In this document: positions 2,475-57,172 of the stretch, one piece after another
How the letters are laid out: every line of letters begins with the position of its first letter
Position numbering within the stretch: the stretch's first letter is position 1
Assembly: GCA_013152295.1 (NCBI GenBank)
Contig: JAADGQ010000112.1
Coordinates: 1,977-65,976 of the forward strand
Reading direction: 5' to 3'
Source: Gammaproteobacteria bacterium
Lineage (GTDB): Bacteria; Pseudomonadota; Gammaproteobacteria; JAADGQ01
Length of the DNA stretch: 64,000 bases
The notes under the pieces: generated by a model
What the model saw: only the letters and a program-made list of their open reading frames with translations
The model's database searches: none
Told to the model about the DNA's origin: nothing
Position numbers and translations under genes: made by a program

Positions 2475-3161
2475 ATGAAGAGAAAACGCACGATAACCGG
2501 CTTTTTTTCATTGCGGGGAAACAGGGCTCGCTGCTTTCTCCGATTAACGACCTTCCTGGTTTTTTTTGTCGCCGTGGTGCCTAGCGCGCTTGCGCATAAG
2601 GTCAATCTGTTCGCTTACGCTGAAGGTGACGAGGTCTTTGTCGAAGGCTATTTTGCCGATGGAAAGAAAGCTCAAAAAAGCACTGTTACTGTTTTTGATG
2701 GTAACGTTCTCGTTGCCAAGGGCGTCACTGATGACGAAGGGCTGTTACGCTTTACTCCACCGAAAAAAGTTCCATTAAGGATCACCCTCAATGCCGGTAT
2801 GGGGCATCGGGCTGAATTTCTGCTTGCCGCTGATGAGTGGGGCGATAGCGATGCGAGTAGCGGCGTAGTAACGAATAGACCGCCGACAACCGATAAGTCA
2901 TCGAGTAGTGTAAATGTTGCGCCGACTGTTGATGCAGCCCCCCTCGTCGCAGATGCTTTGCCTCCGGTGAGTCGCGCAGAGCTACACAGTATGATTACAA
3001 AGGCGGTCAAAGAGGCGAATAAGCCGCTTGTCAGAAGCCTTACCGATATGCAGGAGCACGCCTCTTTTTCTCAAATTGTTGGTGGCATTGGTTTTATTTT
3101 TGGCATACTCGGCGCTGCCTTCTATTTTAAAGAGAAGAAGGGAAAAGCTGGCGCTGAATAG
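2475..3161 (+). CDS. bitopic membrane/periplasmic accessory component of the Nik ECF transporter (NikL/NikN/NikK-like)
   Basis: 228 aa. Basic N-terminus plus hydrophobic signal-anchor (FLRLTTFLVFFVAVVPSALA). A beta-rich periplasmic segment (HKVNLFAYAEGDEVFVEGYFADGKKAQKSTVTVFDGNVLVAKGVTDDEGLLRF). An Ala/Pro/Ser/Thr linker. A C-terminal TM helix (IVGGIGFIFGILGAAFYF) with a KEKKGK tail. It is the first gene of the nikM-Q-O operon, a position where NikK/NikL/NikN-type auxiliary subunits occur. Confidence 0.5.
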   Translation: MKRKRTITGFFSLRGNRARCFLRLTTFLVFFVAVVPSALAHKVNLFAYAEGDEVFVEGYFADGKKAQKSTVTVFDGNVLVAKGVTDDEGLLRFTPPKKVPLRITLNAGMGHRAEFLLAADEWGDSDASSGVVTNRPPTTDKSSSSVNVAPTVDAAPLVADALPPVSRAELHSMITKAVKEANKPLVRSLTDMQEHASFSQIVGGIGFIFGILGAAFYFKEKKGKAGAE

Positions 3162-3219
3162 TTGGTCGCTGGACTTCACATTTGAACTTTACGTTTAGGG
3201 AACGGGTGAACAGTTTATT

Positions 3220-3897
3220 ATGCATATCTCTGACGGTATTCTCTCAGCTCCGGTTCTGGCAGCAGGTTTTGCAGGCACTGCCATATTGGCAGCAGCCACT
3301 CTGCGCAAGATGGATATGGATGAAATTCCGAAGATATCCGTTATCACCTCGGTCTTTTTTATCGCCTCGTTGATCCATATTCCCGTTGGCCCCTCAAGCG
3401 TTCACCTTATTTTGAATGGGTTGGTTGGTATTGTGCTCGGCTGGCGAGCGTTTCCCGCCATCATGCTTGGCATTATTTTGCAGACGCTGCTATTTGGCCA
3501 TGGCGGGCTTACTGTCATCGGTGTTAATTCGGTGATGCTGGGTGGCGGCGGTTTGCTTGCTTACATGGTTTGGCAGCTTAGGCATCGCTTTACGCTGCCT
3601 AAAAAGGAGGTTGTGTTCGGTGCGCTGGCTGGCGCAACAGGGATCATCTCATCAGGCATAATACTCGCGCTGGCACTTATCACTACAGGTGACGAGTTTA
3701 TGGCTACTGCCGCTTTTGCACTAGTTGCCCACGTGCCGGTCATGATTGTGGAGGCGATTGTCGTTGGCGCTTGCGCTGGCTACCTTGCTAAAGTGAAACC
3801 GGAGGTGTTAGCTGGGTATATCAGGCCAACACCGAGAGCATCGAAATCGACAGCCAAAGCAGCGGTAGATGGTAAGCAGGACGATACAACTCCTTGA
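3220..3897 (+). CDS. nikM: ECF transporter substrate-capture (S) component NikM/CbiM
   Basis: Begins with MHISDG, the invariant Met-His N-terminus of CbiM/NikM that coordinates the metal. Polytopic membrane protein of 225 aa. No separate or fused NikN domain. Confidence 0.85.
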   Translation: MHISDGILSAPVLAAGFAGTAILAAATLRKMDMDEIPKISVITSVFFIASLIHIPVGPSSVHLILNGLVGIVLGWRAFPAIMLGIILQTLLFGHGGLTVIGVNSVMLGGGGLLAYMVWQLRHRFTLPKKEVVFGALAGATGIISSGIILALALITTGDEFMATAAFALVAHVPVMIVEAIVVGACAGYLAKVKPEVLAGYIRPTPRASKSTAKAAVDGKQDDTTP

Positions 3898-3930
3898 ATG
3901 CAGCCCACGCTCTAGTCTACGGATTTCACT

Positions 3931-4719
3931 GTGCCACTTGATATCGACCGTTACTCCCACCTCGCTTCACCGTTGCAGCGCTGGGATCCCAGGTTTAAGT
4001 TGCTCTCTCTTGGCAGCTTTGCTTTCGGTGTCGCGCTTGTTAAAACACTTCCATTGGCTCTCGTTGCTCTGCTTGTCGCTCTCATTTTACTCAAGCTAAG
4101 CAGCTTGCCTTACCACTTTATTGCGCATGCTATGAAGTGGATTATCTTTTTTCTGTTGCCTTTTTTCTTGATTATGCCGCTGAGCTACCCCGGTGAGGCG
4201 GCTTACCATATCTTGGGTTTGCCGTTCGCGTGGGAGGGGTTGCGGCTCGCCACGCTGATTTTTATCAAAGCCAACGCTATCGTATTGACCACTTTCGCCA
4301 TTTTCGGCTCGTCGCGTTTTGATATATCAATGATTGCACTGCAACATCTTAAATGCCCCAAAGTGCTGGTGCAGATGACTCTGTTTACCTACCGCTACAC
4401 CTTTGTCTTTCTGGAGGAGATGAAGCGTATGCAGGTGGCGATGCGTGCTCGGGGGTTTGTTCTGAAAACGGATATGTATACGCTGCGCACCATGGGCAAC
4501 TTTGTTGGCACGCTGTTGGTGCGCAGTTTTGAGCGCACTGAGCGCGTCTATAACGCCATGCTCTCCAAAGGCTATCAGGGTGAGTTCCATACCTTGGTGC
4601 GATTCAAGTCAGATCGTAGTGATTACATTAAAGCCGTTATCGTGTTGGGTATTACCATCGCATTATTAGTGGGTGATCTGTCGGGAGGCTTTACGCCTGC
4701 GATACAGGGCTGGTACTAG
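3931..4719 (+). CDS. nikQ: ECF transporter transmembrane (T) component NikQ/CbiQ
   Basis: GTG start. 262-aa polytopic protein with the CbiQ signature region (ARGFVLKTDMYTLRTMGNFVGTLLVRSFERTERVYNAMLSKGYQG). Confidence 0.85.
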   Translation: MPLDIDRYSHLASPLQRWDPRFKLLSLGSFAFGVALVKTLPLALVALLVALILLKLSSLPYHFIAHAMKWIIFFLLPFFLIMPLSYPGEAAYHILGLPFAWEGLRLATLIFIKANAIVLTTFAIFGSSRFDISMIALQHLKCPKVLVQMTLFTYRYTFVFLEEMKRMQVAMRARGFVLKTDMYTLRTMGNFVGTLLVRSFERTERVYNAMLSKGYQGEFHTLVRFKSDRSDYIKAVIVLGITIALLVGDLSGGFTPAIQGWY

Positions 4720-4788
4720 TCTCGCCAATGCTCACTTTTTCCGGTGAAAGCCGTTTATTCCAAGCCGCCCAATGCAAAAGGGGGACGC

Positions 4789-5796
4789 GTGTCAGCACCC
4801 ATCGCCATAGAAGTTAAAAATGTATTTTTCACCTATCCCGACGGTCATGACGTACTGAAAGATGTTTCGTGCAGCATCAAGCAGGGCGAGAAAGTTGCGC
4901 TAATTGGCCCCAATGGTGCGGGCAAGTCCACTTTCATGAGTCTGCTTAATGGCGTTGCCATGGCCACCGAGGGTCAGGTATTTATTGATGGTAAAGAGGT
5001 CATTCGCGACAACCTGATCGAAATACGCCGCAGGGTCGGTATCGTATTTCAGGACCCCGACGATCAGCTATTTTGTCCGACGGTCTATGACGATGTTGCT
5101 TTTGGTCCGCTGAATCTTGGGCTTGCAGCAGAAGAGATCGAAGCGCGCATCGAAGAGTCATTGGCGTTGGTTGGGCTGGAGGGGTTTGGTGAGCGCTCTT
5201 CATATCACCTCTCGTTTGGCGAACGCAAACGCTTGGCGTTGGCAACGGTACTCTCTTATCGGCCTGAGATTTTGGTCTTTGATGAACCCTCCACCAATAT
5301 GGATCCACTCAACCGGCGCAAGTTGATAGAGTGGTTGAAGCAGACCGATAAAACCATTCTGCTCTGCACCCATGATCTGGATATCGCTCTGGAGGTCTGC
5401 AGCCGTTGCCTGGTTCTGACCGAAGGCGAAATTGTTGCCAACGGCCCTGCTTCTGAAGTTTTGCATGATAAGCAGTTGCTGGAGTCGAATAATCTGGAGC
5501 TGCCTCTGGCGCTCATCACTCACGAAATACTGCACAATATTCTGCATGCAGAGAAGATGGATGAGGAGCACCGCTCCATCATTGGTGATTTTCTCCACAC
5601 TCACCGTCATGCCCACGGCTCTGATGACCACTTGCACTATCACTTGCATGCTCATCCCCATGATCATGGCCATCTGCACGACCACTCGACGGAATCGCAT
5701 AGCCACCACACGCACGACCACGGTGATGATCCGGCACATGCCAGTATCCCCCATACTCATGAACCAGCAGATCAAACAACCACAGACAAAAAATAG
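4789..5796 (+). CDS. nikO: ECF transporter ATPase NikO/CbiO with a His-rich C-terminal extension
   Basis: Walker A (GPNGAGKST), ABC signature (LSFGERKRLALA), Walker B (LVFDEPST). I prefer the GTG at 4789 because a strong SD aagggggac lies just upstream; the track ORF starts at 4744. The C-terminal roughly 65 aa are extremely His-rich (HTHRHAHGSDDHLHYHLHAHPHDHGHLHDHSTESHSHHTHDHGDD...). Confidence 0.85.
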   Translation: MSAPIAIEVKNVFFTYPDGHDVLKDVSCSIKQGEKVALIGPNGAGKSTFMSLLNGVAMATEGQVFIDGKEVIRDNLIEIRRRVGIVFQDPDDQLFCPTVYDDVAFGPLNLGLAAEEIEARIEESLALVGLEGFGERSSYHLSFGERKRLALATVLSYRPEILVFDEPSTNMDPLNRRKLIEWLKQTDKTILLCTHDLDIALEVCSRCLVLTEGEIVANGPASEVLHDKQLLESNNLELPLALITHEILHNILHAEKMDEEHRSIIGDFLHTHRHAHGSDDHLHYHLHAHPHDHGHLHDHSTESHSHHTHDHGDDPAHASIPHTHEPADQTTTDKK

Positions 5797-5852
5797 CGGG
5801 CAGCCTTGCCATAAATCGTAAATGCTAGCCGCCTGAAACAAGGAAACAGAGC

Positions 5853-6491
5853 ATGCGGGAAAAAGAGAAGAGCACGCAAATTATCTACGTCAGGCATGGC
5901 GTTACAGATTTTCCGCTTGACCGTATCTATTGTGATGACCGAGAAGACCCCGCGCTTAACGAGTTGGGTGTTGCCCAAGCACAGCAGGCGGCGTTGCGCC
6001 TCAAAGAGACACAAATCGATCTGATTGTTGCCAGCCCTTATCTGCGTACACGCATGACGGCGGAAGCCATCGCGCAAGCAACGGGGGCGCCGCTTGAATT
6101 TAACAAAGCGCTACGAGAAAGAGGTTTTGGTATCTGGGATGGGCTCTACTTCAATGAAATTGAAACAGGTTATCCCGAAGATTTTTTACGCTGGAAACAG
6201 AACCCGGCTGACTTCAAGCCTGAAAATGGTGAATCTGTTCACGACCTTCTGCGCAGGGTTTCATCGGTCATTAGTGACATCACGACCCATCACAAAGGGA
6301 AGTGTGTGGCAGTGGTCGCGCACGTTGGCCCCATCCGGGCTTGCCTCTGTGATGCTTTGAACATACCAATCAAACACTATCGGCAGCTCTGTGTCGATTA
6401 CGCCTCATCGAGCCGGGTTGATTACGGTAAAAGCCAAAATAACTTTATATACATGAACCAGACACACGCCGTCGCAGACAACCATCCGTAA
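5853..6491 (+). CDS. histidine phosphatase family protein (phosphoglycerate-mutase-like)
   Basis: RHG catalytic motif near the N-terminus (IYVRHGVTDF). Length and later conserved His (VAVVAHVGPIRA) fit the PGM/CobC-like histidine phosphatase fold. Confidence 0.7.
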   Translation: MREKEKSTQIIYVRHGVTDFPLDRIYCDDREDPALNELGVAQAQQAALRLKETQIDLIVASPYLRTRMTAEAIAQATGAPLEFNKALRERGFGIWDGLYFNEIETGYPEDFLRWKQNPADFKPENGESVHDLLRRVSSVISDITTHHKGKCVAVVAHVGPIRACLCDALNIPIKHYRQLCVDYASSSRVDYGKSQNNFIYMNQTHAVADNHP

Positions 6492-6500
6492 ATTCAGACG

Positions 6501-6533
6501 AAAAAATGGGGCGCACCTTGCGGTGCGCCCCAT
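6501..6533. terminator. hairpin between convergent genes; reads as an intrinsic terminator for the minus-strand giant gene
   Basis: atggggcgcacc (6506-6517), loop ttgc, ggtgcgccccat (6522-6533): a perfect 12-bp GC-rich stem. The A6 run on the plus strand becomes a T6 run directly after the stem on the minus strand. Confidence 0.6.
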
Positions 6534-6552
6534 TCTCAGGTTGGCTTTGGGA

Positions 6553-9500
6553 CTAACTGAGGTTGCTTCTCCAGACCCGTGTTGCAGCGATCAGTGTCAG
6601 ACTGATCAGCAGCAGTGGATTGACAGGGCCACCGCCACCGCCACCACTGCTACCATTCGTACTGCTGCCCGTGTTGGAGCTGCTGTCGCCGCTACCGCTA
6701 TTGCCTGCGTTGCCGGAGAGACCGCTGGGATCGACGATGATGCCGTTGACCACGCCGTCGGCGTCATCTGCACTGCCATCGACCAGGGTTATGGTCGCCT
6801 TCTGGCCGTTGTAGCTGACATTGCCATTGAACGGAGTGATGGTTCCATTGGCTTCATCATATTTGTGCCAGCTGCTGTTTTCAGGCAGTACTTCAGGAAA
6901 GTAGACATCAACTTGTACTTCGGCAGGGTTGTTCGCATCAACGGGCAACCCGGTGATGTAGAAGCTGAACAGCCCGAAAGGCAGATCGAGGTCGCTGCTG
7001 GCCGGAGTGTCCCCGCGGGAAAATGAAGAGACACAGTTGATTAAGCCTGCCGAGGTGCGGAAGCCGATCGCACTGGCGCGTTCGGCGTCACGCAGGTTAC
7101 ACATCCCCTCTAGGTCGTCATCGGCACCGTTGTTGTCGGTATCGACAACTTCGTTGATTTCGTAGCGATCATCAACGCCATCGTCATTGGCATCATTGTT
7201 ACTGCCGGAGAGGCTGAAGTTCACTGCAGCTGACCACTCAGACATCAGCTCATTACTATTGTAGTGTCGTGTGCGAGCCCAATAGCTGGTGCCTGGTTTG
7301 AGCAGGCCCAGTGGAACAATCAGGTTGCCACGGCTATCAATATCACGCTCTAGAATGAGCGTGTCAAAGCTCTGGCTGGTGCTGATTTGCCACAATGAGC
7401 CTGCCAGTGCCTGGTTGTCGGGGCCGGTGAACTCACCGCTAAAGGTAAATACCCAGAAGTTATGATTATTACGAACCTCTGATGTCGCGCTCAAGCCGCC
7501 GGGTCGTGCGGGGCGGTGTTGCGCTACCGTGTCGTTACCATTGACTGGATCGCTACCGTAGGCTACTTCGTCGCCATCACTGTCGCCGTCGCCGTCGGAA
7601 TCGCTGTTGTTGGGGTTGCTGCCCAAGGTGAACTCCTCGCGGTCGGTGAGGCCATCGCTATCACTGTCAGCGCTGCCGTCGAGAGAGAGGTCACCGAACT
7701 GCTCAATCTCCCAACTGTCGGTGAGTCCGTCGCCATCGCTATCGTTGGCACTTGGCTGCGCGTCAACAGTGACCGTTACGGTTTTATTGACATTGCCACC
7801 ATCACCGCTGCATGACAGTGTGAAGGTTGCATCCTGAGTTAGTGGTCCGACCGTTTCGGACGAAGCGCCTGCTGTTCTGTTGCCGCTCCAGTCACCGCTT
7901 GCTCGGCAGTTGCTAGCGTCGGTTGCTGTCCAGCTCAGCACAGTGATGCTGTTGAATGCGACATTGCTTGGGTCGGCGCTGAGGCTGAGGGTCGGCATAG
8001 GCGCTGGCGTGGGTGGTGGTGGGGGAGGCGTGGTGGTATCGCCAGGAGGCGTAGAGGACCCTCCTCCCTGACCGCTCTCTATTTTCAGCTGTGGGTTAGC
8101 GGACAGGTCGGAGCTGTTGAGCATGCGATTATGCACTTCAACTGCCAGCACGTTGCTGCCGTTGACCAGGCTGCTAATAGATGCATCCAGATTGAACGCC
8201 TCCGGGGTGGCACTGGCTTCGTTGTTGCCGTTGGCCGGTGTGTTGTTGTCTACTGCGCCGACGGGCATGTTGCCGCGAGCGATCTCTACGCCATTGAGGT
8301 AGGCGACGAAGCCATCATCGAAGTGGATGTTAAGCGCCATACCCGCAACGGATGAGGCGTCGGTAACGCTAAACGTTTTGCGCAGATAGACGCTGAGGTA
8401 GCCGTCCTGCATGTCGTTGAGTACGGTGGCATCATCGTTATCGCCATAGCCGAACCCGCTGGGACCAGAGAGCCATGCAGAGTCATCAAAAGCAGCTGCT
8501 GCCCAATTCGTGCCAGGATTGCTGGTGCCTTTGAAGTAGCGCCAGGTGTCACCAAAATCGATGGCTGTCGTGATTGCTGATGGTGCACCGACTTCAATGC
8601 TGAGGTCTTTGCTGGTTGTGGTGCCAGCGGCATCTGTCAGTGTTATCGCAAAGGCATGCAATCCCATTGTGGTCGCAGTGCCACTGATCAAGCCGCTACT
8701 GGCATTGAGTGATAGCCCCGCAGGCAGTTGGCCACTGCTCACCGACCAGCTCAATGGTGTTTCAGTGCCCACGCCGCTGAGCGTTGCGTTATAAGACTCA
8801 CCCTGTAGTGTGTCTGCCAATACGGTAGTGGAGATCTGTGGTGCTGTGTAGGCGTAAGTTTGAAAGGTGTAGCCCTCTGTAGCCATAGCATTTCCCGATC
8901 CACTCAGATCCTTGGCATCAATGCTCACGGCAACCTGCTTGGTGAAAGCAAAGTTCTGAGGCGGGTTGTAGGTTACCGTATAGGCGCTGGCCGAACCCGT
9001 GACGGTAGTGTTCGGATAGCTGCCTGCTTGCGCGCCGTTGTAGATCACCTGGCCATCTATACGTACCACCAGCGAGTTGATATCAACACCCTCTTCAGCG
9101 TCAGAGATGCGAAACGAGACGTTGCTGTCGACGGCTACTTCGTTCGCACCAGAGAGAGGTGAGCGGTTGGTTACCATGGGTGGAACCGATCCTGGGTTCG
9201 CCGGAAACTCATATGCGCCCACGTCAGCGGAGCCTTGTGAGCGTGAGTTGAGGAAGTAATCGTCATTGAGCACGTTGGGTATATTGGTGCTGCTTGCATC
9301 GATGGCGACGCTGCCTGCCAGCAAGCGAAAATCGAAGTTGCTGGGATCAACAAACAGCGGATCGTTGCTGTCACCGCCGCCGATAGGGTTTTCATCAATG
9401 GAGGGAGCGCCCGCATTCAGGCCGTAGTAGAGGTTATTGGTGAATCGTGCTGTTCCCCAGCCACTGCTCACACCTGATCCAACATATGTATCATTGGTGT

Positions 9501-10974
9501 CCTGACCGTAGTAGACGATGTTGTTAGCGATGATTAAGTTGGCGCTGGTGAGGGTCCAGGTATTCGCAATAATATTATTATGGCTGCCGCTGCGTAGCTC
9601 ACAAAATACGTTGTTGAAGACGCGAAAATTTGAGGGGTTTATGGAGTTGATTCTGAACTCCGAGCCGCCTGCGTTGCAGACAATATTGTTATAAAAATAG
9701 GCATCATCGGTTTTATTGGAGGCATTGATACCGTGTTTGGCCACATTGAGCACCAAGTTGTGGTGCACACGGTAGCCGCGGATGTATTTGCTCAATGATC
9801 CGTAGGATTGAATGCCGTTACCACCCTTGATGTCGTGAATATAATTGTAGGCAACCTCGATATCTTCAACGCTGGTGGGGTCCCCATCGTTATCAAAATA
9901 GATGCCGTGGTTACGTTGACCATCCCCCCAGATGTCGTGGATATGGTTGCCGAAAATCTTTACCCGATTGCCGTTGCCTGCGATACCACCGGAGCGCGCT
10001 GAGCGGCTGGTAGCGTCAGTTTCAAGGGTGAACCAGTCAAACAGTTCGTTATTGATGACGCGCCAATCGTTGGAGCCCCACTGCAGGTTGATGGGGCCTT
10101 CGACGTTTGAGCCGTCACCGCCGGAGATGCGCAGCCCTGCGATGACGATCCAGTGAGCTTCGTTGGCGTTGCCGCGGTTATGAATGCCGCCGGCACGTTG
10201 CGGAAAGATGTGTACGTTTTCTCCGGGGTAGCCAACGATAGATATCGGACCACTACCCAATGTGCCGTCGGGCGCGCTGCCGGAGTTGCCCGTTGTGCGC
10301 AAAAAACGATCGTTAGCGCCTTCGTCTTTCCAGTCACCACCACGCAGCACAATGAAATCGCCCGGACTGACATCATGCCAAACGCCGATGCGATCAGGGG
10401 TTTGCACGCGGCGGAACGGTTTGTTGATGTTGCCTATCTCACCCGTGGCATCATTGCCGTTGAGTGATACGTACCAGATCTTGCCCGGCTGCACGGTGAA
10501 CGTATTGTCACTGTTTGAACTAACGCCGCCGACTTCGACGCGGACCGCACCGCTGCTGACAGCGCCGACCTGAACGGAGATCTGTTGTACGTCGTTGCGG
10601 CCGTAAGAGCTGCCCATGTATTTGTACTCGGCGACCTCCCGACTACCAATATAGACCTTGGTGTTGCTGCCAAGCCCTGAGGGGTCACCCAAATTTATGC
10701 CGAATATGGAGAGGTAGGCGCCGTTGTTGTTTTCACCACCTGAATTGGGGCCGCTGACGACATCGGTGTAGAGCACTTGCGGGGTTCCTGATGCGGCCAG
10801 GGTACTGCTTATGGGTAGCGCAATCAGTAGCAGTGAAGCGAAAAAAACAGCCAAAAAAAACGGCGCATTGGTTACCCCTTGCCTGGTTGCAGAGGGTTTA
10901 ACCAATGCGCCGTTTTGATGAGCGGGTGTTAAGTTGGTGTCAGACTTAACGTTGGTGTGTAACGAAATTTTCAT
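6553..10974 (-). CDS. giant secreted multi-domain protein: signal peptide, parallel beta-helix, cadherin-like Ig, LamG-like jellyroll, Pro-rich linker, Ig-like, Asp-rich Ca-binding repeats, FN3-like, anchor-associated domain, Ser/Gly linker, Gly-run/TM/basic C-terminus
   Basis: 1473 aa. SD gaggaag sits 9 nt before the ATG. Hydrophobic signal segment (FFLAVFFASLLLIALPISSTLAA). Repeated PbH1-type beta-helix rungs (HNLVLNVAKHGINASN, FYNNIVCNAGGSEF, VFNNVFCELRSGSHNNIIANT, IIANNIVYYG, FTNNLYYGLNAG). A putative Ig/cadherin-like segment (LSWSVSSGQLPAGLSLNASSGLISGTAT). A LamG-like segment (LNIHFDDGFVAYLNGVEIARG...LAVEVHN). PPPPPPTPAP linker. DSDGDGLTD and DSDSDGLTD thrombospondin-type-3-like repeats. 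The C-terminus is GGGGGGPVNPLLLISLTLIAATRVWRSNLS. Confidence 0.8.
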   Translation of the reverse strand: MKISLHTNVKSDTNLTPAHQNGALVKPSATRQGVTNAPFFLAVFFASLLLIALPISSTLAASGTPQVLYTDVVSGPNSGGENNNGAYLSIFGINLGDPSGLGSNTKVYIGSREVAEYKYMGSSYGRNDVQQISVQVGAVSSGAVRVEVGGVSSNSDNTFTVQPGKIWYVSLNGNDATGEIGNINKPFRRVQTPDRIGVWHDVSPGDFIVLRGGDWKDEGANDRFLRTTGNSGSAPDGTLGSGPISIVGYPGENVHIFPQRAGGIHNRGNANEAHWIVIAGLRISGGDGSNVEGPINLQWGSNDWRVINNELFDWFTLETDATSRSARSGGIAGNGNRVKIFGNHIHDIWGDGQRNHGIYFDNDGDPTSVEDIEVAYNYIHDIKGGNGIQSYGSLSKYIRGYRVHHNLVLNVAKHGINASNKTDDAYFYNNIVCNAGGSEFRINSINPSNFRVFNNVFCELRSGSHNNIIANTWTLTSANLIIANNIVYYGQDTNDTYVGSGVSSGWGTARFTNNLYYGLNAGAPSIDENPIGGGDSNDPLFVDPSNFDFRLLAGSVAIDASSTNIPNVLNDDYFLNSRSQGSADVGAYEFPANPGSVPPMVTNRSPLSGANEVAVDSNVSFRISDAEEGVDINSLVVRIDGQVIYNGAQAGSYPNTTVTGSASAYTVTYNPPQNFAFTKQVAVSIDAKDLSGSGNAMATEGYTFQTYAYTAPQISTTVLADTLQGESYNATLSGVGTETPLSWSVSSGQLPAGLSLNASSGLISGTATTMGLHAFAITLTDAAGTTTSKDLSIEVGAPSAITTAIDFGDTWRYFKGTSNPGTNWAAAAFDDSAWLSGPSGFGYGDNDDATVLNDMQDGYLSVYLRKTFSVTDASSVAGMALNIHFDDGFVAYLNGVEIARGNMPVGAVDNNTPANGNNEASATPEAFNLDASISSLVNGSNVLAVEVHNRMLNSSDLSANPQLKIESGQGGGSSTPPGDTTTPPPPPPTPAPMPTLSLSADPSNVAFNSITVLSWTATDASNCRASGDWSGNRTAGASSETVGPLTQDATFTLSCSGDGGNVNKTVTVTVDAQPSANDSDGDGLTDSWEIEQFGDLSLDGSADSDSDGLTDREEFTLGSNPNNSDSDGDGDSDGDEVAYGSDPVNGNDTVAQHRPARPGGLSATSEVRNNHNFWVFTFSGEFTGPDNQALAGSLWQISTSQSFDTLILERDIDSRGNLIVPLGLLKPGTSYWARTRHYNSNELMSEWSAAVNFSLSGSNNDANDDGVDDRYEINEVVDTDNNGADDDLEGMCNLRDAERASAIGFRTSAGLINCVSSFSRGDTPASSDLDLPFGLFSFYITGLPVDANNPAEVQVDVYFPEVLPENSSWHKYDEANGTITPFNGNVSYNGQKATITLVDGSADDADGVVNGIIVDPSGLSGNAGNSGSGDSSSNTGSSTNGSSGGGGGGPVNPLLLISLTLIAATRVWRSNLS

Positions 10975-11497
10975 GATGGCAGCTTCCTCGCTACGAGTGC
11001 CTCTTAAATTAATGAGGCGCTTTAGTTGGTTCGTGTTTCAAAGTGCTTGTTAGAGCTTTAATGACACTCTGTGGCAAGCACATTCTCGGCACAGGATCAA
11101 TGAATGCAATCTTCTCACGATCAGTTTCAACATGATGTCGAGCTGATCACGACGGCTATGTGACTGGTTATCGAAATTTGATTAATCGTGAATGTTGGTC
11201 GATTACGGCGTTTTGGATGGTTTTTTTGCGCGGTTATTTTTGATTACACTGTAAAAATAGCTGTTTTTTCCTGCTTACTTTGAGTTGCAGGCCTGGTACG
11301 TCGGGGGGGTGAGATTTATTGTGTGCTGTCGTTATTCTTTACGATATTCTGATTGTGCATGTCTAAAAAACGAGAATGCCTTTCTGGTGTGCTGAAGGTG
11401 GTATGCACTTTTAGGTGACTTCAGCAATATTTGTGGCTTTGGCAATAAGTGTTAAAGTAGCGCCATTTTTTTGTGGCGTATCTGAAGGGAGAGCTGA

Positions 11498-12754
11498 ATG
11501 GCTTACGACAAAATCACGGTGCCCGCCGATGGTGAGCGCATAACGATCAATGAAGATTTTTCACTGAATGTGCCGGTACGGCCCATCATCCCGTTTATTG
11601 AGGGCGATGGTATTGGCGCCGACGTGACGCCAGTGATGCGCCGCGTGATTGATGCTGCGGTTGAGAAAGCGTACGGCAGTGAGCGCAGCATTACGTGGAT
11701 GGAAATTTATGCCGGCGAGAAGGCCAACAACCTCTACGGCGGTGATACATGGCTGCCTGAAGAGACGCTGGCGGCGATAGGTGACTACCTGATCGCCATC
11801 AAGGGGCCACTGACCACGCCGGTGGGTGGGGGTATCCGTTCATTGAATGTTGCCATGCGTCAACAGCTCGATCTCTACAACTGCCAGCGGCCGATCCGCT
11901 ACTTTCCCGGTACGCCGAGTCCGCTCAAACACCCGGAGAAGACCGATATGGTGATTTTCAGGGAGAACTCGGAGGATATCTACGCTGGTATCGAGTGGGA
12001 GGCGGGAACGCCTGAAGTAAAAAAGGTGATCGACTTTCTGCAGCAGGAGATGGGTGTCAGCAAAATCCGTTTCCCCGACAGTTCAGGCATTGGCATCAAG
12101 CCGGTCTCTCAGGAGGGCACTGCGCGTCTGGTGCGCAAAGCGATCCAGTATGCGATAGATAATGATCGCAGCAGCGTCACGCTGGTGCACAAAGGCAATA
12201 TCATGAAGTTCACCGAAGGTGGCTTTAAGAGCTGGGGCTATCAGGTTGCGCGGGATGAGTTTGGCGCCGTTGAGGTGGATGGCGGGCCATGGTGCAAAAT
12301 GACCAATCCTAAAACGGGTGGTGAGATTGTGATCAAAGATGCCATCGCTGATGCATTTTTGCAGGAGATTCTGCTGCGTCCAGAGGATTTCAGCGTGATT
12401 GCCACGTTGAACCTTAACGGTGACTATATCTCCGATGCCTTGGCGGCTCAGGTGGGGGGTATCGGTATCGCGCCCGGCGCGAATTTGTCTGACGGGATTG
12501 CACTGTTCGAAGCGACCCACGGCACCGCGCCGCGCTATGCAGGCCAGAATAAGGTCAATCCGAGTTCGATTATCCTCTCGGCGGAGATGATGTTGCGCCA
12601 CATGGGCTGGACAGAAGCAGCTGACCTCGTCATCAAAGGTATTGCCGCAGCCATTGTCGCCGGTACGGTGACCTATGATTTGGCACGGCTGATGGAGGGC
12701 GCAGATCAGCTGAGCTGCTCCGGTTTTGGCGAAGCGGTGATTGGTCAGATGTGA
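11498..12754 (+). CDS. icd: NADP-dependent isocitrate dehydrogenase
   Basis: 418 aa, aligns end-to-end with E. coli-type Icd ([21 protein letters not shown]..., [20 protein letters not shown]). A 523-bp leader lies upstream. Confidence 0.9.
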
Positions 12755-12757
12755 TGT

Positions 12758-13186
12758 TTGAGCGAGTTTAGGCGTGTGACTGCTGAAACAGCGCTATTTG
12801 AACTCGACGCACAATCGATCATTGATGATGCGATTCACAGCGCCGCGCGAACCTACGCGCTGCACATCGTATTGGCGCGGCGTCAGCACCTAACTGTCGG
12901 TCGGCTTGGGGACTTTACCTTCCCGGCCGGCCGCTACATCTATACCGGCAGCGCCAGAAAAAATCTGGCTGCTCGCGTCAAGCGCCATTTGAGCACAGAT
13001 AAAAAACTCCGCTGGCACATCGACTATCTGCTGGCATCGCCGTCGGCTTCGGTGGTTTTGGTGCAGTTGTTTGATAAGGATGAGTGCCTCGTCAACCAGC
13101 ATCATGGTGGCGTGGTGGTTGTGCCGCGCTTTGGCGCATCGGATTGTCGTCAGGGTTGTGGCAGCCACCTCAAACGGCTGAGTTAG
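12758..13186 (+). CDS. GIY-YIG-like (DUF123-type) small nuclease-fold protein
   Basis: 142 aa with a TTG start as called; a GTG 6 codons downstream is also possible. Central GRYIYTGSARKNLAARVKRH segment followed by KKLRWHIDYLL, which I recognise as the DUF123/GIY-YIG-superfamily signature. Packed 3 nt after icd and 4 nt before gluQ. Confidence 0.55.
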   Translation: MSEFRRVTAETALFELDAQSIIDDAIHSAARTYALHIVLARRQHLTVGRLGDFTFPAGRYIYTGSARKNLAARVKRHLSTDKKLRWHIDYLLASPSASVVLVQLFDKDECLVNQHHGGVVVVPRFGASDCRQGCGSHLKRLS

Positions 13187-13190
13187 CGAG

Positions 13191-14120
13191 GTGGCAGACG
13201 GGCGGCAGGTTGTGGAGGATAGAGCGCCTTATGTGGGCCGCTTCGCGCCATCTCCTACCGGGCCTCTCCACTTTGGTTCGCTCGTGGCCGCCGTTGCCAG
13301 TTACGCTCAGGCTAAAAGTCAGGGTGGTCGTTGGCTGTTGCGTATCGAAGATATCGACCCTCCTCGCGAAGTCGCGGGTGCCAGCGATGAGATTTTGCGT
13401 GCGCTGGAGCACTACGGCTTCGAGTGGGATGGTGAGGTGTGCTATCAAAGCCGTCGCCATTTGGCGTACGAGGCTGCGTTGGAGCAGCTCTATCAGCATC
13501 GTTGGGTCTATCCGTGTCGCTGCTCGCGCAAAATGGTTCGCCAACTTTCCGAGCGCGGTATCTATCCGGGCACCTGCCGTCATGCCGCGCCTGCCGAGGC
13601 TGGATCATTTCCTTTTCAGGGTTACGCCATGCGCGTGCTAAGCGCAGGACCGGTGCGCTCGTTCCGCGATGTTGTGCAGGGTGATGTGAGCGAGGATCTG
13701 CAGCGCGAAGTGGGCGACTTTGTGGTGCGCCGTGCGGATGGCCTCTGGGCCTATCAGCTGGCTATTGTGGTGGATGATGCTGAGCAGGGTGTGACCGAAG
13801 TGGTGAGGGGCGCTGATCTGCTGGCTTCTACCGCGCGGCAGATTCACTTGCAACATTTGTTGGGATATCCGTCACCGAGCTATTTTCACCTGCCGGTAGT
13901 GATGGGTGACAATGGCGAGAAGCTCAGCAAGCAGGGTGGGGCGCCAGCGCTCACAGCGGGCGATTCGCTGCCAGTGCTAATCCGTGCGTTAGGGTTTCTC
14001 AATCAACCGCTGTTCGGGCTGGAGTCAGCCGCTGATTTACAACAGTTCTGGTTGGAGGTCTTCAAACGCTGGCAGGCCGACCGGGTGCCCTCTTTGCCTA
14101 GTTGCCGCCCGCGTATCTAA
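13191..14120 (+). CDS. gluQ: glutamyl-Q tRNA(Asp) synthetase
   Basis: GRFAPSPTGPLHFGS class-I HIGH-like motif, truncated GluRS catalytic domain (309 aa), and KLSK motif (GEKLSKQ). Confidence 0.85.
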   Translation: MADGRQVVEDRAPYVGRFAPSPTGPLHFGSLVAAVASYAQAKSQGGRWLLRIEDIDPPREVAGASDEILRALEHYGFEWDGEVCYQSRRHLAYEAALEQLYQHRWVYPCRCSRKMVRQLSERGIYPGTCRHAAPAEAGSFPFQGYAMRVLSAGPVRSFRDVVQGDVSEDLQREVGDFVVRRADGLWAYQLAIVVDDAEQGVTEVVRGADLLASTARQIHLQHLLGYPSPSYFHLPVVMGDNGEKLSKQGGAPALTAGDSLPVLIRALGFLNQPLFGLESAADLQQFWLEVFKRWQADRVPSLPSCRPRI

Positions 14121-19716: not shown

Positions 19717-20310
19717 ATGCCTGCCATGGATAGAAAAAATTTTGGTTTTTCTCTGATTGAGCTGCTAATCGCGATGGTCTTGGTTGCCATTTTGGCCGCG
19801 ATAGCCATTCCCGGTTACCAGGCGCTGATCAAAGGCAGCCGCATCACCAGCATGACCAATACCTTGTTATCGGATATTCGCCTGGCCCGCAGCGAAGCGA
19901 TCAAGCGCCAGGAGCGTAGCGCTTTGTGCCGCAGCGATAACCCCACAGCGGTGAGCCCGAGTTGCGGCGGCACGGCCAATGACTGGTCGGATGGCTGGTT
20001 GGTCTATGTAGCGGGGCCTACTAATCTCAGCAACCCCTTGATTTACAATGCCGCTACTGACGTATTGCTTAAAGTTGGTTTGCCAGCCGAGCTTGGCATC
20101 ACCATTAAGACGGATGCCGACGCTGATCTGGCACTGCAATTTAATGGGGATGGCAGTAGCGGTGAAATTGACGTTGCTGTCTATGCCATTTGTGATGACC
20201 GTGATGGTGATGGCGACCTGGACAAGGCGTACGGCAGGCAGGTGAATGTCAGTTTGGTGGGGCGTGGTAGTGCCACAGATAATGTGCTGAGCTGTGATGC
20301 ACCGACTTAA
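19717..20310 (+). CDS. fimT: type IV pilus minor pilin, GspH/FimT family
   Basis: Prepilin leader MPAMDRKNFG then FSLIELLIAMVLVAILAAIAIPGYQ, with Glu at +5. First gene of a fimT-pilVWXY1E-type operon. Confidence 0.75.
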   Translation: MPAMDRKNFGFSLIELLIAMVLVAILAAIAIPGYQALIKGSRITSMTNTLLSDIRLARSEAIKRQERSALCRSDNPTAVSPSCGGTANDWSDGWLVYVAGPTNLSNPLIYNAATDVLLKVGLPAELGITIKTDADADLALQFNGDGSSGEIDVAVYAICDDRDGDGDLDKAYGRQVNVSLVGRGSATDNVLSCDAPT

Positions 20311-20322
20311 GGAGCGCATTGA

Positions 20323-20901
20323 ATGAATCCTGGTTTCAACGCAGGTGGTGTGGGTTACGCGCCATATTCAGCGCGCGGTCCGCTACGTTGTGGTTTTCAT
20401 CGTAGCTGCGGGGTGAGCATGATCGAGGTGCTGGTGGCGCTGGTGTTGCTTTCCATTGGGTTGCTGGGGGTGGCTGCCATGCAGACGACGGGTATTCGCC
20501 AGAGCCACGATTCGCAACTGTTGAGCCAGGCGCTGTTACAAGCGCAGGATATGGCCGATAGAATGCGCGCTAATCTGGTAGCGGTACGCGTGGGTGCGTA
20601 TAGCGCCATCGATGGCAGCGCAGCGGCGATGGATTGTGTCGGCACAAACTGCAGCGCGGATAATATTGCGCAGTATGACGCCTATGTGTGGAATTCCGAT
20701 AATGCCACCCGCTTGCCATCGGGGCAGGGCGTAACCGCTTGCACCGATATCAATGCGGCGACGTCGGTTCTTGATGCTGGTTCCAGCTGCGTGATTACTG
20801 TGCGTTGGGATGGCGAACGTAACGGCGCAACGGGCACCGGTTGCAACGCCACTATCGATACGGACCTGAAGTGTGTTCGCCTGAATTTCGTATTGCCATG
20901 A
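20323..20901 (+). CDS. pilV: type IV pilus minor pilin PilV
   Basis: Class-III signal G|VSMIEVLVALVLLSIGLLGVAAMQ, typical of PilV. The leader as called is long (30 aa), so the true start may be a non-ATG codon downstream. Confidence 0.7.
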   Translation: MNPGFNAGGVGYAPYSARGPLRCGFHRSCGVSMIEVLVALVLLSIGLLGVAAMQTTGIRQSHDSQLLSQALLQAQDMADRMRANLVAVRVGAYSAIDGSAAAMDCVGTNCSADNIAQYDAYVWNSDNATRLPSGQGVTACTDINAATSVLDAGSSCVITVRWDGERNGATGTGCNATIDTDLKCVRLNFVLP

Positions 20902-20921
20902 GTCGATTCGAGGGGGTTTCT

Positions 20922-22022
20922 ATGAGGCAGCAATGTCCTCGTCATTTTCCAATGCGGGCTACAAAGAAATTGATGCCTGTACGGTGGCGTCATCAGCGTG
21001 GGCTCTCCCTGGTCGAAATTCTGGTGGCGGTGACGTTAAGCCTGGTGCTGTTAGGTGGATTGGTGCAGATGTTTGCCGGTAGTAAAGATGCCTATCGGCT
21101 GCAGGGCAATATGAATGTGCTCCAGGATAACGGGCGCTTTGCGACCAACATGATCAAATACAGCATTCGCATGGCGGACCACTGGGGCAATGCCGAGAGC
21201 ATTGTGCCAGCAACGACATCAGCAGCACCGGTAGTGATTGGCAGCGGCAACTGTTCGTCGGCCTGGAGTCTGGATATCAACGAAGCGCTGCACGGCTATG
21301 AGGGCGGTGCAACACCACCCGCAGCTGTTGACTGTATCGCGGCGGGGGATTACGTCACCGGTAGCGACATGGTTGTGCTGCGTTATGCGGGGTCAACGGC
21401 CGTGAGTACCGATGTTGTTGATAATAGCGACACGATCTATGTGCGCGGACGGGTCGGTAGTTCGGGGGTGCTGTTCAAGGGCAGTGAAGTGGCTAGTATT
21501 GACTCCGGTTTGCAGCTTTACGAGGCTGCAAACCCTGATCCTGTTGATGTCAGCAACTATCCCTATCGCGTTGAACTCTACTTTATTCGCCCGTGCAGTG
21601 TGAAATTGGGTACGGTTTGCTCTAGTAGTGACGATAGTGGTCAGCCTATTCCTACGTTGACACGTTACACACTGCTACCCAGTGTTGGTGGTGGCGCTGA
21701 TCAGCTCGTTCAGCAGGCGCTGGTTGAGGGCGTGGAGCAGCTGCAGCTGCAGTACGGCATCGATACCGATGGTGACGGATTTACCAATGTTTATGAGACT
21801 GCAGCAAGTCTCGATGTTAATGGTAGCTATAACTGGGATAGCGTTGTCAGTGTGCGCATGGGGTTGCTGGTGCGTACTATTGAACAGGATGGTGCTTACA
21901 CTTCACCGGCCAGTTACAGCTTGCTGGCGGCGAATGACTACACGGTACCCGCAGCACAGAGAAGTTACCATCGGCAGCTCTTTACACAAATTGTTCAGGT
22001 GCGTAACCGGAGCAGAAACTGA
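20922..22022 (+). CDS. pilW: type IV pilus assembly protein PilW
   Basis: HQRG|LSLVEILVAVTLSLVLLGGLVQMF prepilin-like N-terminus characteristic of PilW. Start placed at the ATG after SD gaggggg; alternative ATGs are at 20952 and 20973, and the track ORF starts at 20841. Confidence 0.7.
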   Translation: MRQQCPRHFPMRATKKLMPVRWRHQRGLSLVEILVAVTLSLVLLGGLVQMFAGSKDAYRLQGNMNVLQDNGRFATNMIKYSIRMADHWGNAESIVPATTSAAPVVIGSGNCSSAWSLDINEALHGYEGGATPPAAVDCIAAGDYVTGSDMVVLRYAGSTAVSTDVVDNSDTIYVRGRVGSSGVLFKGSEVASIDSGLQLYEAANPDPVDVSNYPYRVELYFIRPCSVKLGTVCSSSDDSGQPIPTLTRYTLLPSVGGGADQLVQQALVEGVEQLQLQYGIDTDGDGFTNVYETAASLDVNGSYNWDSVVSVRMGLLVRTIEQDGAYTSPASYSLLAANDYTVPAAQRSYHRQLFTQIVQVRNRSRN

Positions 22023-22066
22023 TGCCCACTCTCGATGGTTATTTTGATTATTCAAATGGTGGCACG

Positions 22067-22741
22067 ATGATGAAAAAAGAGCAGAGCGCTATGCGTTGCA
22101 ATCACACTGTTTCCAGGCACCAGTCGGGCTATGTGCTGGTGACCAGCTTGTTGTTCTTGTTAGTGCTGACAATGGTCGCGGTGGTGAGTACGCAGACAAC
22201 AACGCTTGAGCTGCGCATGAGCGCCAACAATGTGGCAAAGGGGCGCGCCCTTGAGTCATCCGAGGCGCTGCGTCATTTTGCTGGCGAAGTAGTGGATGCC
22301 CATACTTTCCACCAGGGTTGGCCTGTTTCGTTGGGCGGGGGCATCCAGGATAAAGAGTTTGGCGTCACTTTTCCCGCAGGTATCAACTTCGTCAACAAGA
22401 CGGATGGCGTGCCCAATAATATGTATCTGCTGGGTAGCAACGGTGCGGGGGAGAACCCGCTGGACCCCTCAACGCTGGTGAACGATATTACCTACCAGGT
22501 TGATGGCAACGGCGATGGTGACCTGGATGACGGCGTGGATATTTCAGCATCTGTTTCGATCTACCGCTTGCCTGCCACGTCAGCCAAAGGTAGCAATATT
22601 GCGATGGTTTCCGGTTATCTGGGGCTGGGTCGCAGCGCTGCCGGTGGTGGCTCCAATATCTACTACCTGTTGCGCAGCACAGGCACCTCGGCCGGTGGTG
22701 CGCGGGCCGTGACCGCTAGTGAGTACCGTTATGTGCCTTGA
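22067..22741 (+). CDS. pilX: type IV pilus minor pilin PilX
   Basis: N-terminus QSGYVLVTSLLFLLVLTMVAVVSTQTT matches the PilX N-terminal domain pattern (QxGxVLIVxLIxLLVLT). Start chosen at MMKKE (22067); the track ORF starts at 22022. Confidence 0.7.
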   Translation: MMKKEQSAMRCNHTVSRHQSGYVLVTSLLFLLVLTMVAVVSTQTTTLELRMSANNVAKGRALESSEALRHFAGEVVDAHTFHQGWPVSLGGGIQDKEFGVTFPAGINFVNKTDGVPNNMYLLGSNGAGENPLDPSTLVNDITYQVDGNGDGDLDDGVDISASVSIYRLPATSAKGSNIAMVSGYLGLGRSAAGGGSNIYYLLRSTGTSAGGARAVTASEYRYVP

Positions 22742-22830
22742 TGTTGGATAGATGTACTGTGGTAGACCGAACCAGTCCCAATACAGCTGCCCTCGGAGTC
22801 AATCGAGAGGCGTTTAGCCAGGAGAGCGTG

Positions 22831-27627: not shown

Positions 27628-27670
27628 CAATCCAGTAGTAACGATCCAGTAACAAAAAGGAGCATGCGGC

Positions 27671-28156
27671 ATGGTTGATAGCAGAGCATTTGCGCAGCAG
27701 AGAAAAAATAGCGTACGTCTGCAGGGATTTACACTGATCGAGTTGCTGGTCGTTCTGGTGATTATGGCGATTCTGTTGTCGATTGCGGTGCCGGGTTATC
27801 AGACGTACGTCGATCGAACACGACGTGCTGATGCCCAGGCCGCATTAGTGCTGCTGTCTGGCGCTATGGAGCGCTTTTATACGGAAAACAACAGCTATTT
27901 GGGAGCCGCTAACGGCGGCGGGAATACAGGCGCGCCAGGCATCTTTAATACAACGGTGCCGCTGGATGGCGGTACGGCGAACTACAATTTAACGATCAAC
28001 GCCGCTACCGCCACGACCTTTACCCTGCGTGCGACCCCAGTGGGGGTGCAGGATGGCGACGGTTTGCTTGAATATACCAATGCCGGGGTTAGGCGTTGGG
28101 ATAAAAACGATGACGGGGATACGGGCGATGCCGGCGAAGATAATTGGTCGCGTTGA
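27671..28156 (+). CDS. pilE: type IV minor pilin PilE-like
   Basis: RLQG|FTLIELLVVLVIMAILLSIAVPGYQTYVDRTRRADAQAAL, a type IVa pilin N-terminus. Last gene of the minor-pilin operon. Asp-rich C-terminal DKNDDGDTGD loop. Confidence 0.75.
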   Translation: MVDSRAFAQQRKNSVRLQGFTLIELLVVLVIMAILLSIAVPGYQTYVDRTRRADAQAALVLLSGAMERFYTENNSYLGAANGGGNTGAPGIFNTTVPLDGGTANYNLTINAATATTFTLRATPVGVQDGDGLLEYTNAGVRRWDKNDDGDTGDAGEDNWSR

Positions 28157-34493: not shown

Positions 34494-35369
<876 letters not shown>

Positions 35370-56596: not shown

Positions 56597-57172
56597 TTAC
56601 TGAGCGCTCTGTTTTTTCAGCGCCTTCTCTTTTTTTCTGAGGAAAGAGACAATGTCGCCATTTTGCTCCTTGAATGCCAGCTCAGAGGCTCTTCTGCCTT
56701 CATCGTTGGTGAGGGTTACGTCAGCGCCATTGGCAACCAGCAGCTTGACGATAGCGAGGTGATCACTGGCTGCAGCCCAATGTAGGGCTGTCCACTTGAC
56801 GTTGGTTTTCATGTTGGGGTCTGCGCCGTTATCGAGGAGTAGCTGCGCAGCCTGCAGGTTTCCCTTCATCGACGCGCGTATCAGCGCGCTCCACTGATCC
56901 TGATCCTGGGCGTTAACGTCAGCGCCCTTTTCAATCAACAGTTTGACCAGCTCAGTGTGGCCCTGACGCGCGGCGTGCATCAGCGCAGTCCAGCCAAAAT
57001 TGTTGCGTTCGTTGATGTCACCGCCTTCAGCGAGTGACTTTTCAACAGCGTCGCGATCGCCGTTGACCACCTCATTCATGAGCGGTGTGTTGTCATCACA
57101 ACCACCCAGTAGCAGTGGCGTTACGCAAAGCGCTGCTATCAAAAATATCCGCAGTGGGGCAGGTGTGTGCAT
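56597..57172 (-). CDS. ankyrin-repeat lipoprotein
   Basis: Signal/lipobox LLLGGC followed by about five ankyrin repeats (GWTALMHAARQGHTELVKLLIEKGADVNAQD...WTALHWAAASDHLAIVKLLVANGADV). Confidence 0.7.
   Translation of the reverse strand: MHTPAPLRIFLIAALCVTPLLLGGCDDNTPLMNEVVNGDRDAVEKSLAEGGDINERNNFGWTALMHAARQGHTELVKLLIEKGADVNAQDQDQWSALIRASMKGNLQAAQLLLDNGADPNMKTNVKWTALHWAAASDHLAIVKLLVANGADVTLTNDEGRRASELAFKEQNGDIVSFLRKKEKALKKQSAQ

Follow-up and report, generated by a model that had tools for sequence, protein, structure and literature searches.

We analysed a 64,000-nucleotide stretch of a gammaproteobacterial genome (assembly GCA_013152295.1, contig JAADGQ010000112.1), referred to below as the window. 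It holds an open reading frame (ORF) for a 1473-residue protein whose N-terminal part is predicted to fold as a right-handed parallel beta-helix. The ORF, from its ATG start to its stop codon, occupies 6553..10974 on the minus strand, as do all parts of the protein at the coordinates given for them below, and it has no internal stops. We found that its product is identical to the NCBI entry 'MAG: hypothetical protein GXP10_07310 [Gammaproteobacteria bacterium]' (MAG, metagenome-assembled genome); therefore the ORF is not an assembly artefact peculiar to the window. No signs of a pseudogene were seen in the ORF, and the GC content across the gene (0.51-0.59) is near that of its flanks. The gene is real and intact.

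Expression signals and flanking genes

The gene is monocistronic, with housekeeping genes on either side. A Shine-Dalgarno sequence, gaggaag, lies 8 nt 5' of the ATG (10983..10989, minus strand), whereas a TTG start at Leu24, which we considered and rejected, has none. Upstream is a 523-bp intergenic region (10975..11497, minus strand) common to the ORF and the divergent icd gene (11498..12754, plus strand), whose product scores 757 bits against the NADP-isocitrate dehydrogenase model. This leader holds one predicted promoter, a weak sigma-70-like site at 11455..11426, and the small ORFs inside it are unremarkable. We rejected a riboswitch or other known RNA there, since no Rfam family matched at E<=1 and the stability of the fold was only slightly raised over shuffled sequences (z = -2.4).

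At the other end of the gene we found an intrinsic terminator (6501..6536, minus strand) with a GC-rich, perfect 12-bp stem (AUGGGGCGCACC/GGUGCGCCCCAU), a GCAA loop and a U6 tract. It is predicted to fold with -31.4 kcal/mol, a z of -6.0 relative to shuffled sequences. It was not listed by a simple consensus scanner, and weak Rfam matches at 6495-6568 are merely this hairpin. A histidine phosphatase gene (5853..6491, plus strand) converges on the terminator, and nikL-cbiM-cbiQ-cbiO lie upstream of the phosphatase gene on the low-coordinate side. An earlier reading of this DNA, made from the sequence alone (the original prediction), had described the 523-bp upstream region, the Shine-Dalgarno sequence, the perfect 12-bp hairpin, and icd and the nik locus as flanks, and all of these are present.

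The head is a beta-helix module shared by otherwise different proteins

A presumed Sec signal peptide at residues 1-61 (10792..10974) can be read from the translation as a long polar N-region, a hydrophobic core (FFLAVFFASLLLIALPI) and the sequence TLA-AS. It is followed by a head unit of ~535 residues (residues ~62-590). The unit opens with an IPT/TIG-like beta-sandwich at residues 62-165 (10480..10791; motif YTD..SGP.SGGENN.G.YLSIFG.N.G), continues with the predicted beta-helix at residues 166-547 (9334..10479), which starts with a DUF1565-like N-cap (IWYVSLNGNDATG...PGDFIVLRGG), and closes with a choice-of-anchor Q C-terminal cap at residues 548-590 (9205..9333; ...AIDAS...DD......R.....DVGAYEF; NF041518, 27.4 bits against a cut-off of 25). 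Database relatives match only the first ~36% of the protein. Within that part the unit is conserved end to end at 34-53% identity, and it may be N-terminal, C-terminal or present twice among proteins that otherwise differ.

We aligned 26 copies of the head (alignment A1) and used the alignment for an AlphaFold2 (AF2) model and for a family profile. The model of residues 61-600 (pLDDT 88.9, pTM 0.92) has a beta-sandwich that leads into a long right-handed beta-helix. The IPT/TIG-like region is all-beta (pLDDT 94-98) and strongly conserved in the alignment, and the helix has the three-sheet architecture of the pectin-lyase-like superfamily. Rung motifs (YNNIV, FNNVF, HNNII, ANNIV and TNNLY) are also visible in the translation. 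By structure comparison the closest folds are the PL9 pectate and rhamnogalacturonan lyases and a Bacteroides glycoside hydrolase, with scores of 31.2 for the PL9 rhamnogalacturonan lyase, 30.9 for the Bacteroides hydrolase BT_1002 and 29.1 for AlgE4, after which come GH87, NosD, RbmB and PL6 lyases. The top Foldseek matches are likewise carbohydrate-active enzymes, namely GH136, GH120, Pel9A (PL9), PL6, chondroitinase B and AlgE4.

When the family profile was run against the Protein Data Bank (PDB), it found one sequence relative, 9rx2 (E=1.8e-9), for which we found no publication by code or by molecule name. Since the sequence profile found only 9rx2, the beta-helix claim holds for the fold and not for any CAZy family: the head is, as modelled, a beta-helix of the pectin-lyase fold, and a family assignment does not hold. 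Domain models tell the same of the sequence. Beta_helix/PbH1 (PF13229) gave no match in the window protein at E<=1, nor in the isolated helix at E<=10; DUF5123 stayed below threshold (24 bits against 35.1); and TIG (PF01833) scored 16 bits (E=0.012) against a cut-off of 20.9. Among the 26 aligned copies, 20 are touched by DUF5123 and five by PF13229 (best E=1.7e-5), while TIG matches at E<=0.01 in two (best E=1.1e-7). The original prediction had proposed a right-handed parallel beta-helix with PbH1 rungs. Its fold is borne out by the confident AF2 helix and the rung motifs; the Pfam match it implied was not found. The IPT/TIG-like sandwich, the choice-of-anchor Q cap and a Big_5 domain had been missed.

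A conserved polar site lies on the helix

Alignment A1 reveals a conserved polar set in the helix: E252, R305, H346, H356, Y359, D361, Q389, H404, H405, K413, N417 and R441. H356, Y359 and H404 are invariant in the 26 copies, and R305, H346, D361, Q389, H405, K/R413, N417 and R441 are at least 81% conserved, all of these but H405 reaching 85% or more. A further series of asparagines (308, 343, 377, 406, 430, 455, 485 and 514), one per rung, looks like a structural ladder. On our reading of the strand pattern in the AF2 model, Y359, Q389, N417 and R441 take the same position on the same strand in four successive rungs, and this stacking gives the appearance of a substrate groove. We infer that a basic, His-rich, carboxylate-poor set would suit an acidic substrate better than it would suit a classic two-carboxylate hydrolase.

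A multidomain stalk carries a predicted sugar-binding module

Behind the head lies a series of smaller domains. A Big_5 bacterial Ig-like domain (PF13205) at residues 597-706 (8857..9186) scores 21.4 bits in the whole protein and 29.1 bits when the domain is scanned alone, against a cut-off of 23.6. A He_PIG putative Ig domain (PF05345) follows at residues 722-795 (8590..8811; E=3.1e-10), and with 40.8 bits against a cut-off of 24 it agrees with the cadherin-like putative Ig domain of the original prediction.

Residues 796-975 (8050..8589) match no Pfam or NCBIfam model. We collected 23 homologous copies of this region (alignment A2), and the AF2 model based on them (pLDDT 92) has a fold like the N-terminal sugar-binding domain of GH2 enzymes. 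The sequence profile also touches the accessory domain of a GH78 rhamnosidase (E=7.6e-5). Because of this fold and this profile match we describe the region as a predicted galactose-binding-domain-like jelly roll, plausibly a carbohydrate-binding module. The LamG/concanavalin-like jelly roll that had been proposed here (residues ~800-970) is rejected by the AF2 structure and by the absence of a Laminin_G match. Copies of the jelly roll are common among giant metagenomic proteins of the CotH, lamin-tail, metallophosphatase and subtilase types.

The jelly roll is followed by a Gly/Thr/Pro-rich linker (GGGSSTPPGDTTTPPPPPPTPAPMP) at residues 976-998 (7981..8049). The translation shows the Pro-rich linker (TTTPPPPPPTPAPMP) and the runs of DxDxDG that had been noted before. 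Next comes a repeat with two cysteines (LSW...C.ASG.WSG...TLSC.G.GG) at residues 999-1080 (7735..7980), with a putative Ig-like fold; it gave no significant match in Pfam or in a PDB profile search. Three bacterial thrombospondin type-3 calcium-binding repeats (PF18884, E=4.2e-13) span residues 1085-1140 (7555..7722), and their score of 49.3 bits against 25 confirms the calcium repeats of the original prediction in three stretches. A putative FN3-like sandwich (W.I...YW.R.R.Y....SEWS) at residues 1153-1258 (7201..7518) is conserved in the relatives P0002, P0060 and P0210-P0215. Its PDB profile matches, to cytokine-receptor and rhamnosidase FN3-type domains, are weak (E 0.26-1.7), and the FN3-like and choice-of-anchor U region together gave only non-significant matches in that search. 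The Ig-like and FN3-like labels, both proposed earlier, are thus plausible as read from these motifs, and neither gained a significant profile or PDB match. In the window protein Pfam returned He_PIG and the TSP3 repeats and no match to Beta_helix, Laminin_G or fn3. A second acidic DxDxDG-like linker (DANDDGVDD...DTDNNGADD) occupies residues 1259-1300 (7075..7200). Its acidic positions are conserved in alignment A3, and it may bind calcium.

An architecture this rich in adhesion-type modules (Big_5, He_PIG, TSP3 and the Ig-like repeat) brings in the main rival to an enzymatic head. The protein could be a non-catalytic adhesin or matrix scaffold, in which the helix and jelly roll just bind a glycan or a surface. 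It would then fasten the cell to particles, other cells or the cell's own matrix, much as PfbA or the long calcium-stiffened RTX-type adhesins do. This reading would gain from the fact that no clear catalytic carboxylate pair or calcium-binding Asp cluster is conserved in the head, and cadherin-like, PKD, VCBS and InlB-B-repeat domains occur in relatives. However, an invariant His, Tyr and His together with near-invariant Arg, Lys and Arg, kept over 26 sequences at 34-53% identity, suggest a catalytic site more than a binding surface. Many family members also consist of a signal peptide and the module, with no adhesin-type stalk, and relatives are found within exopolysaccharide (EPS) biosynthesis loci, the usual place of processing enzymes. 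We regard the adhesin as a real but lesser possibility.

The C-terminal cassette resembles a divergent GlyGly-CTERM anchor

A choice-of-anchor U domain (NF041766, E=6.6e-18) at residues 1327-1419 (6718..6996) scores 65.4 bits against a cut-off of 32, so the anchor-associated domain of the original prediction is well supported. Behind it, residues 1420-1473 (6556..6717) form a Gly/Ser-rich spacer and a tripartite sorting-type tail, SSGGGGGG / PVNPLLLISLTLIAAT / RVWR, and the protein ends in RVWRSNLS. According to PMC6219818, three parts define GlyGly-CTERM: a Gly/Ser motif, then a hydrophobic helix, then basic residues. This is also the layout of the tail, at the extreme C-terminus. The GlyGly-CTERM model itself (TIGR03501) gave no match at E<=10 when tails of 54, 32 and 30 residues were searched, and among sorting models only SVAGG was matched, weakly (E 0.045-0.23) and in its GlyGly-CTERM end. 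Of the sorted C-terminus foreseen earlier, the tripartite layout is therefore present and the match to a curated sorting-signal model is not.

With the last 215 residues as query we found six small relatives of the FN3-like, acidic-linker and choice-of-anchor U cassette. In the closest relative with full coverage, P0211 (47% identity over 93% of the query), the equivalent tail passes TIGR03501, whereas the more distant P0213 ends in a CFI-box-CTERM that passes NF041770. The same cassette thus occurs with different sorting tails, the 'choice of anchor' behaviour behind the domain name. Because P0211 passes TIGR03501 while P0213 swaps the anchor type, the comparison supports reading the tail of the window protein as a probable divergent GlyGly-CTERM. 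Across the relatives the cassette ends in a GlyGly-CTERM in P0211 and in a Cys-containing CFI-box motif or CFI-box-CTERM in P0213, P0212, P0214, P0215 and P0060. We also considered MYXO-CTERM, whose signature motif contains an invariant Cys according to PMC11980579. This was excluded because there is no Cys in the tail of the window protein or of P0002, and P0002 scored 14.8 bits against 20. No other substrates with the same tail were found in the window.

P0002 is a paralogue encoded in the same MAG (GXP10_10575, partial). Its head is 79% identical to that of the window protein, and its TSP3, FN3-like, choice-of-anchor U and tail region is 51% identical. In place of Big_5, He_PIG and the jelly roll it carries a run of two-Cys Ig-like repeats, of which there are at least six. 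The pair retains head and anchor and exchanges the stalk, which makes it a tidy natural example of modular surface display.

Relatives of the head recur in exopolysaccharide loci

The profile search placed the head in a large family: at E<=1e-30 it matched at least 1,373 clusters of 50% identity, and at E<=1e-10 the number rose to 11,441. Top-scoring matches are often just 560-650 residues long, scarcely longer than the head module. Most relatives carry a signal peptide or a lipobox but lack a sorting tail at the C-terminus. We took 80 genomic loci of relatives and clustered all of their neighbouring ORFs. These loci come from Burkholderiales, Lysobacterales, Steroidobacteraceae, Acidobacteriota, Myxococcota, Nitrospirota, Actinomycetota, Chloroflexota, Deinococcales, Planctomycetota and several candidate-phyla bacteria.

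Recurrent EPS biosynthesis genes were found in 13 of the 80 loci, with at least two such genes in nine and at least three in seven. They encode glycosyltransferases (GTs) of the GT4 and GT2 types, a Wzy_C polymerase/ligase-type protein, a flippase, a polysaccharide deacetylase and a priming transferase, and helix genes are often in tandem in these loci. The locus with the closest genomic relative (L001, 49% identity) is among the 13. In L036 the priming transferase passes the model for the XrtA/PEP-CTERM system glycosyltransferase (TIGR03013, 479 against 393 bits), and in L014 an ATPase passes another XrtA/PEP-CTERM-system model (TIGR03015, 372 against 324.5 bits). A protein of 477-485 residues with no Pfam or NCBIfam match adjoins the IPT and beta-helix genes in three EPS loci (L001:13118-14551, L006:4386-5831 and L036:9899-11356).

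Taken with the enzyme-like fold neighbours, the invariant polar site and the extra sugar-binding module, the EPS-locus context of relatives leads us to a polysaccharide-active reading. By a modest preference, we consider the protein to be a surface-tethered stalk that presents a polysaccharide-active beta-helix, is exported by Sec and acts on exopolysaccharide.

The same fold neighbours, the two kinds of PL9 lyase and the hydrolase from Bacteroides, would also suit a nutritional depolymerase, a surface enzyme that degrades a foreign glycan (algal or particle-bound, pectin- or alginate-like) for uptake and has nothing to do with the cell's own EPS. An added sugar-binding jelly roll is typical of secreted carbohydrate-active enzymes, and the window gene itself stands outside an EPS locus. 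Yet none of the genes that would serve glycan use (transporter, TonB receptor, sugar kinase or isomerase, regulator) adjoins this monocistronic gene, and the recurrent neighbours of relatives (GTs, flippase and polymerase-type protein) are biosynthetic, not catabolic. We consider a nutritional role unlikely.

The protein could also be a host-captured remnant of a prophage tailspike or depolymerase. We rejected this origin on gene context and composition: phage genes are absent on both sides, and the base composition of the gene is near that of its flanks. A signal peptide, a stalk of cellular type and a membrane-sorting tail at the C-terminus also speak against it, as does the fact that relatives of the protein are chromosomal genes of many phyla. 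A prophage origin is very improbable.

Other genes in the window

The plus-strand genes at 2475-6491 include nikL (which passes NF058648), cbiM, cbiQ and cbiO, a Ni/Co ECF transporter. The histidine phosphatase encoded after cbiO resembles cobC/alpha-ribazole-phosphatase and scores under that cut-off. On the other side of the beta-helix gene, a DUF123 gene (12758-13186, plus strand) lies between icd and a short gluQ-type gene resembling class-I tRNA synthetases (13191-14120).

Farther away, a type IV pilus minor-pilin operon (19717-28156, plus strand) includes PilW (20841-22022) and PilX (22022-22741). Its PilY1-like protein (22738-27627) is unusually long, with 1629 residues, and the match to the PilY1 propeller is limited to residues 1083-1370. 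A 191-residue ankyrin-repeat ORF (56597-57172, minus strand) has its best matches among Legionella Dot/Icm Ank effectors, all far under their cut-offs.

Discussion

Our data suggest a surface protein in which a conserved beta-helix is held away from the cell on a stalk. We infer its export route, orientation, substrate and catalysis as follows. The signal peptide would carry the protein over the inner membrane, where the C-terminal tail of Gly run, membrane helix and basic residues would retain it. A rhombosortase-type protease may then cut the tail and lipid-modify the new C-terminus, and the protein would be transferred to the outer face of the cell. Nearest the membrane would stand the choice-of-anchor U domain, the acidic calcium-type linker, the FN3-like domain, the three TSP3 repeats, the Ig-like repeat and the Pro-rich linker. 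Farther out would come the GH2-N-like sugar-binding jelly roll, He_PIG and Big_5, with the beta-helix displayed distally. In this arrangement the IPT/TIG sandwich would pack on the helix and the choice-of-anchor Q cap would close it. A polysaccharide chain may be bound along the groove of H356, Y359, D361, Q389, K413, N417 and R441, with H346, H404 and H405 near, and the helix would most likely cleave or modify the bound chain. The most likely substrate would be an acidic exopolysaccharide, either from the matrix of the producer itself or from cells nearby.

Several observations weigh against this interpretation. The one sequence relative of known structure is named just 'Parallel beta-helix repeat protein'. 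Membership in PL9, PL6, a GH family or an epimerase family by sequence was rejected, since the profile search of the PDB gave that chain alone; no PL9 chain appeared at E<=10 for the 26-member profile, and the structural identity to PL9 is 14-15%. Conserved acidic residues in the helix are few (D361, E310, E373 and E252), and family conservation reveals no evident two-carboxylate site of the classic hydrolase kind and no calcium site of four Asp. The tail passes no curated sorting-signal model, and we found no rhombosortase candidate in the 64-kb window, whose small ORFs with multiple transmembrane segments (CbiM, CbiQ and ORF 34527-35369) all lack a GxSG motif. EPS neighbours within 8 kb are missing for most relatives, and the window copy is outside any EPS locus, between icd and the Ni/Co transporter. 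We found no publication that reports a tested activity for any member of the head family, and neither choice-of-anchor Q nor the occurrence of beta-helix genes in PEP-CTERM loci turned up in our literature searches.

A bolder proposal, which we offer tentatively, is that the IPT sandwich, beta-helix and Q cap form the catalytic unit of an unclassified family of carbohydrate-active enzymes, with at least 1,300 clusters in many phyla. Such a family would process exopolysaccharides of the Wzx/Wzy and XrtA/PEP-CTERM type by way of a His/Tyr/Lys/Arg site unlike that of PL9, and its unit would here be mounted on a rhombosortase-anchored stalk, so that the enzyme would work some way off the cell surface. 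Should the head prove to be an enzyme, it would indicate a widespread uncharacterised family tied to exopolysaccharide loci, including those of the PEP-CTERM/exosortase type, which is involved in forming flocs and biofilms. For mutagenesis, the invariant His/Tyr/His and the conserved Arg/Lys/Arg provide a short list. None of this overturns current understanding, and we regard its importance as modest.

Comparison with known systems

The design is a familiar one: both choice-of-anchor cassettes and surface proteins with a stalked beta-helix have been catalogued before, and only the head family, which is uncharacterised, is of wider interest. The nearest likeness is to NCBIfam choice-of-anchor Q proteins (NF041518) such as P0025 and P0027 of Undibacterium, which have the same IPT, beta-helix and Q-cap unit at 36-37% identity over ~535 residues and, like the window protein, are secreted or surface-bound. 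Unlike it, they are ~930-residue lipoproteins with an LLCACGG lipobox; their C-terminal domains are different and a sorting tail is lacking, whereas the window protein adds a 900-residue stalk and a C-terminal anchor cassette.

PL9 enzymes share the fold of the head, but the identity of Pel9A (PDB 1ru4) and of the PL9 rhamnogalacturonan lyase (PDB 5olq) to the window head is just 14-15%. The head has an additional N-terminal IPT domain and a conserved set rich in His, Tyr, Arg and Lys. PL9 enzymes use a calcium-binding Asp cluster and a catalytic Lys base; in the head family K/R413 and R441 are kept and there is no Asp cluster. For the beta-helix enzymes of EPS loci, RbmB (9ozd), AlgG (4nk8) and AlgE4 (2pyg), a sequence relationship to the window head is undetectable. 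These are soluble periplasmic or secreted proteins encoded in EPS loci, whereas the window protein is stalked and encoded outside one.

For the anchor, the closest comparison is with GlyGly-CTERM/rhombosortase substrates such as VesB of Vibrio cholerae, which share with the window tail a Gly/Ser-rich motif, a hydrophobic helix and basic residues. In the account of VesB in PMC6219818, rhombosortase cuts the tail, the new C-terminus is joined to a glycerophosphoethanolamine-containing lipid, and type II export is followed by retention on the surface. The window protein differs from such substrates in that its tail is under the model cut-off and its cargo is a 1,400-residue multidomain protein, not a protease.

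Finally, the ice-binding RTX adhesin of Marinomonas (PA14 domain = PDB 6x95) is likewise a long calcium-dependent surface protein with a distal sugar-binding module, but it has other repeat types and another secretion route, RTX adhesins being exported by type I secretion. Compared with it, the window protein has a far shorter stalk and bears an enzymatic-looking beta-helix head.

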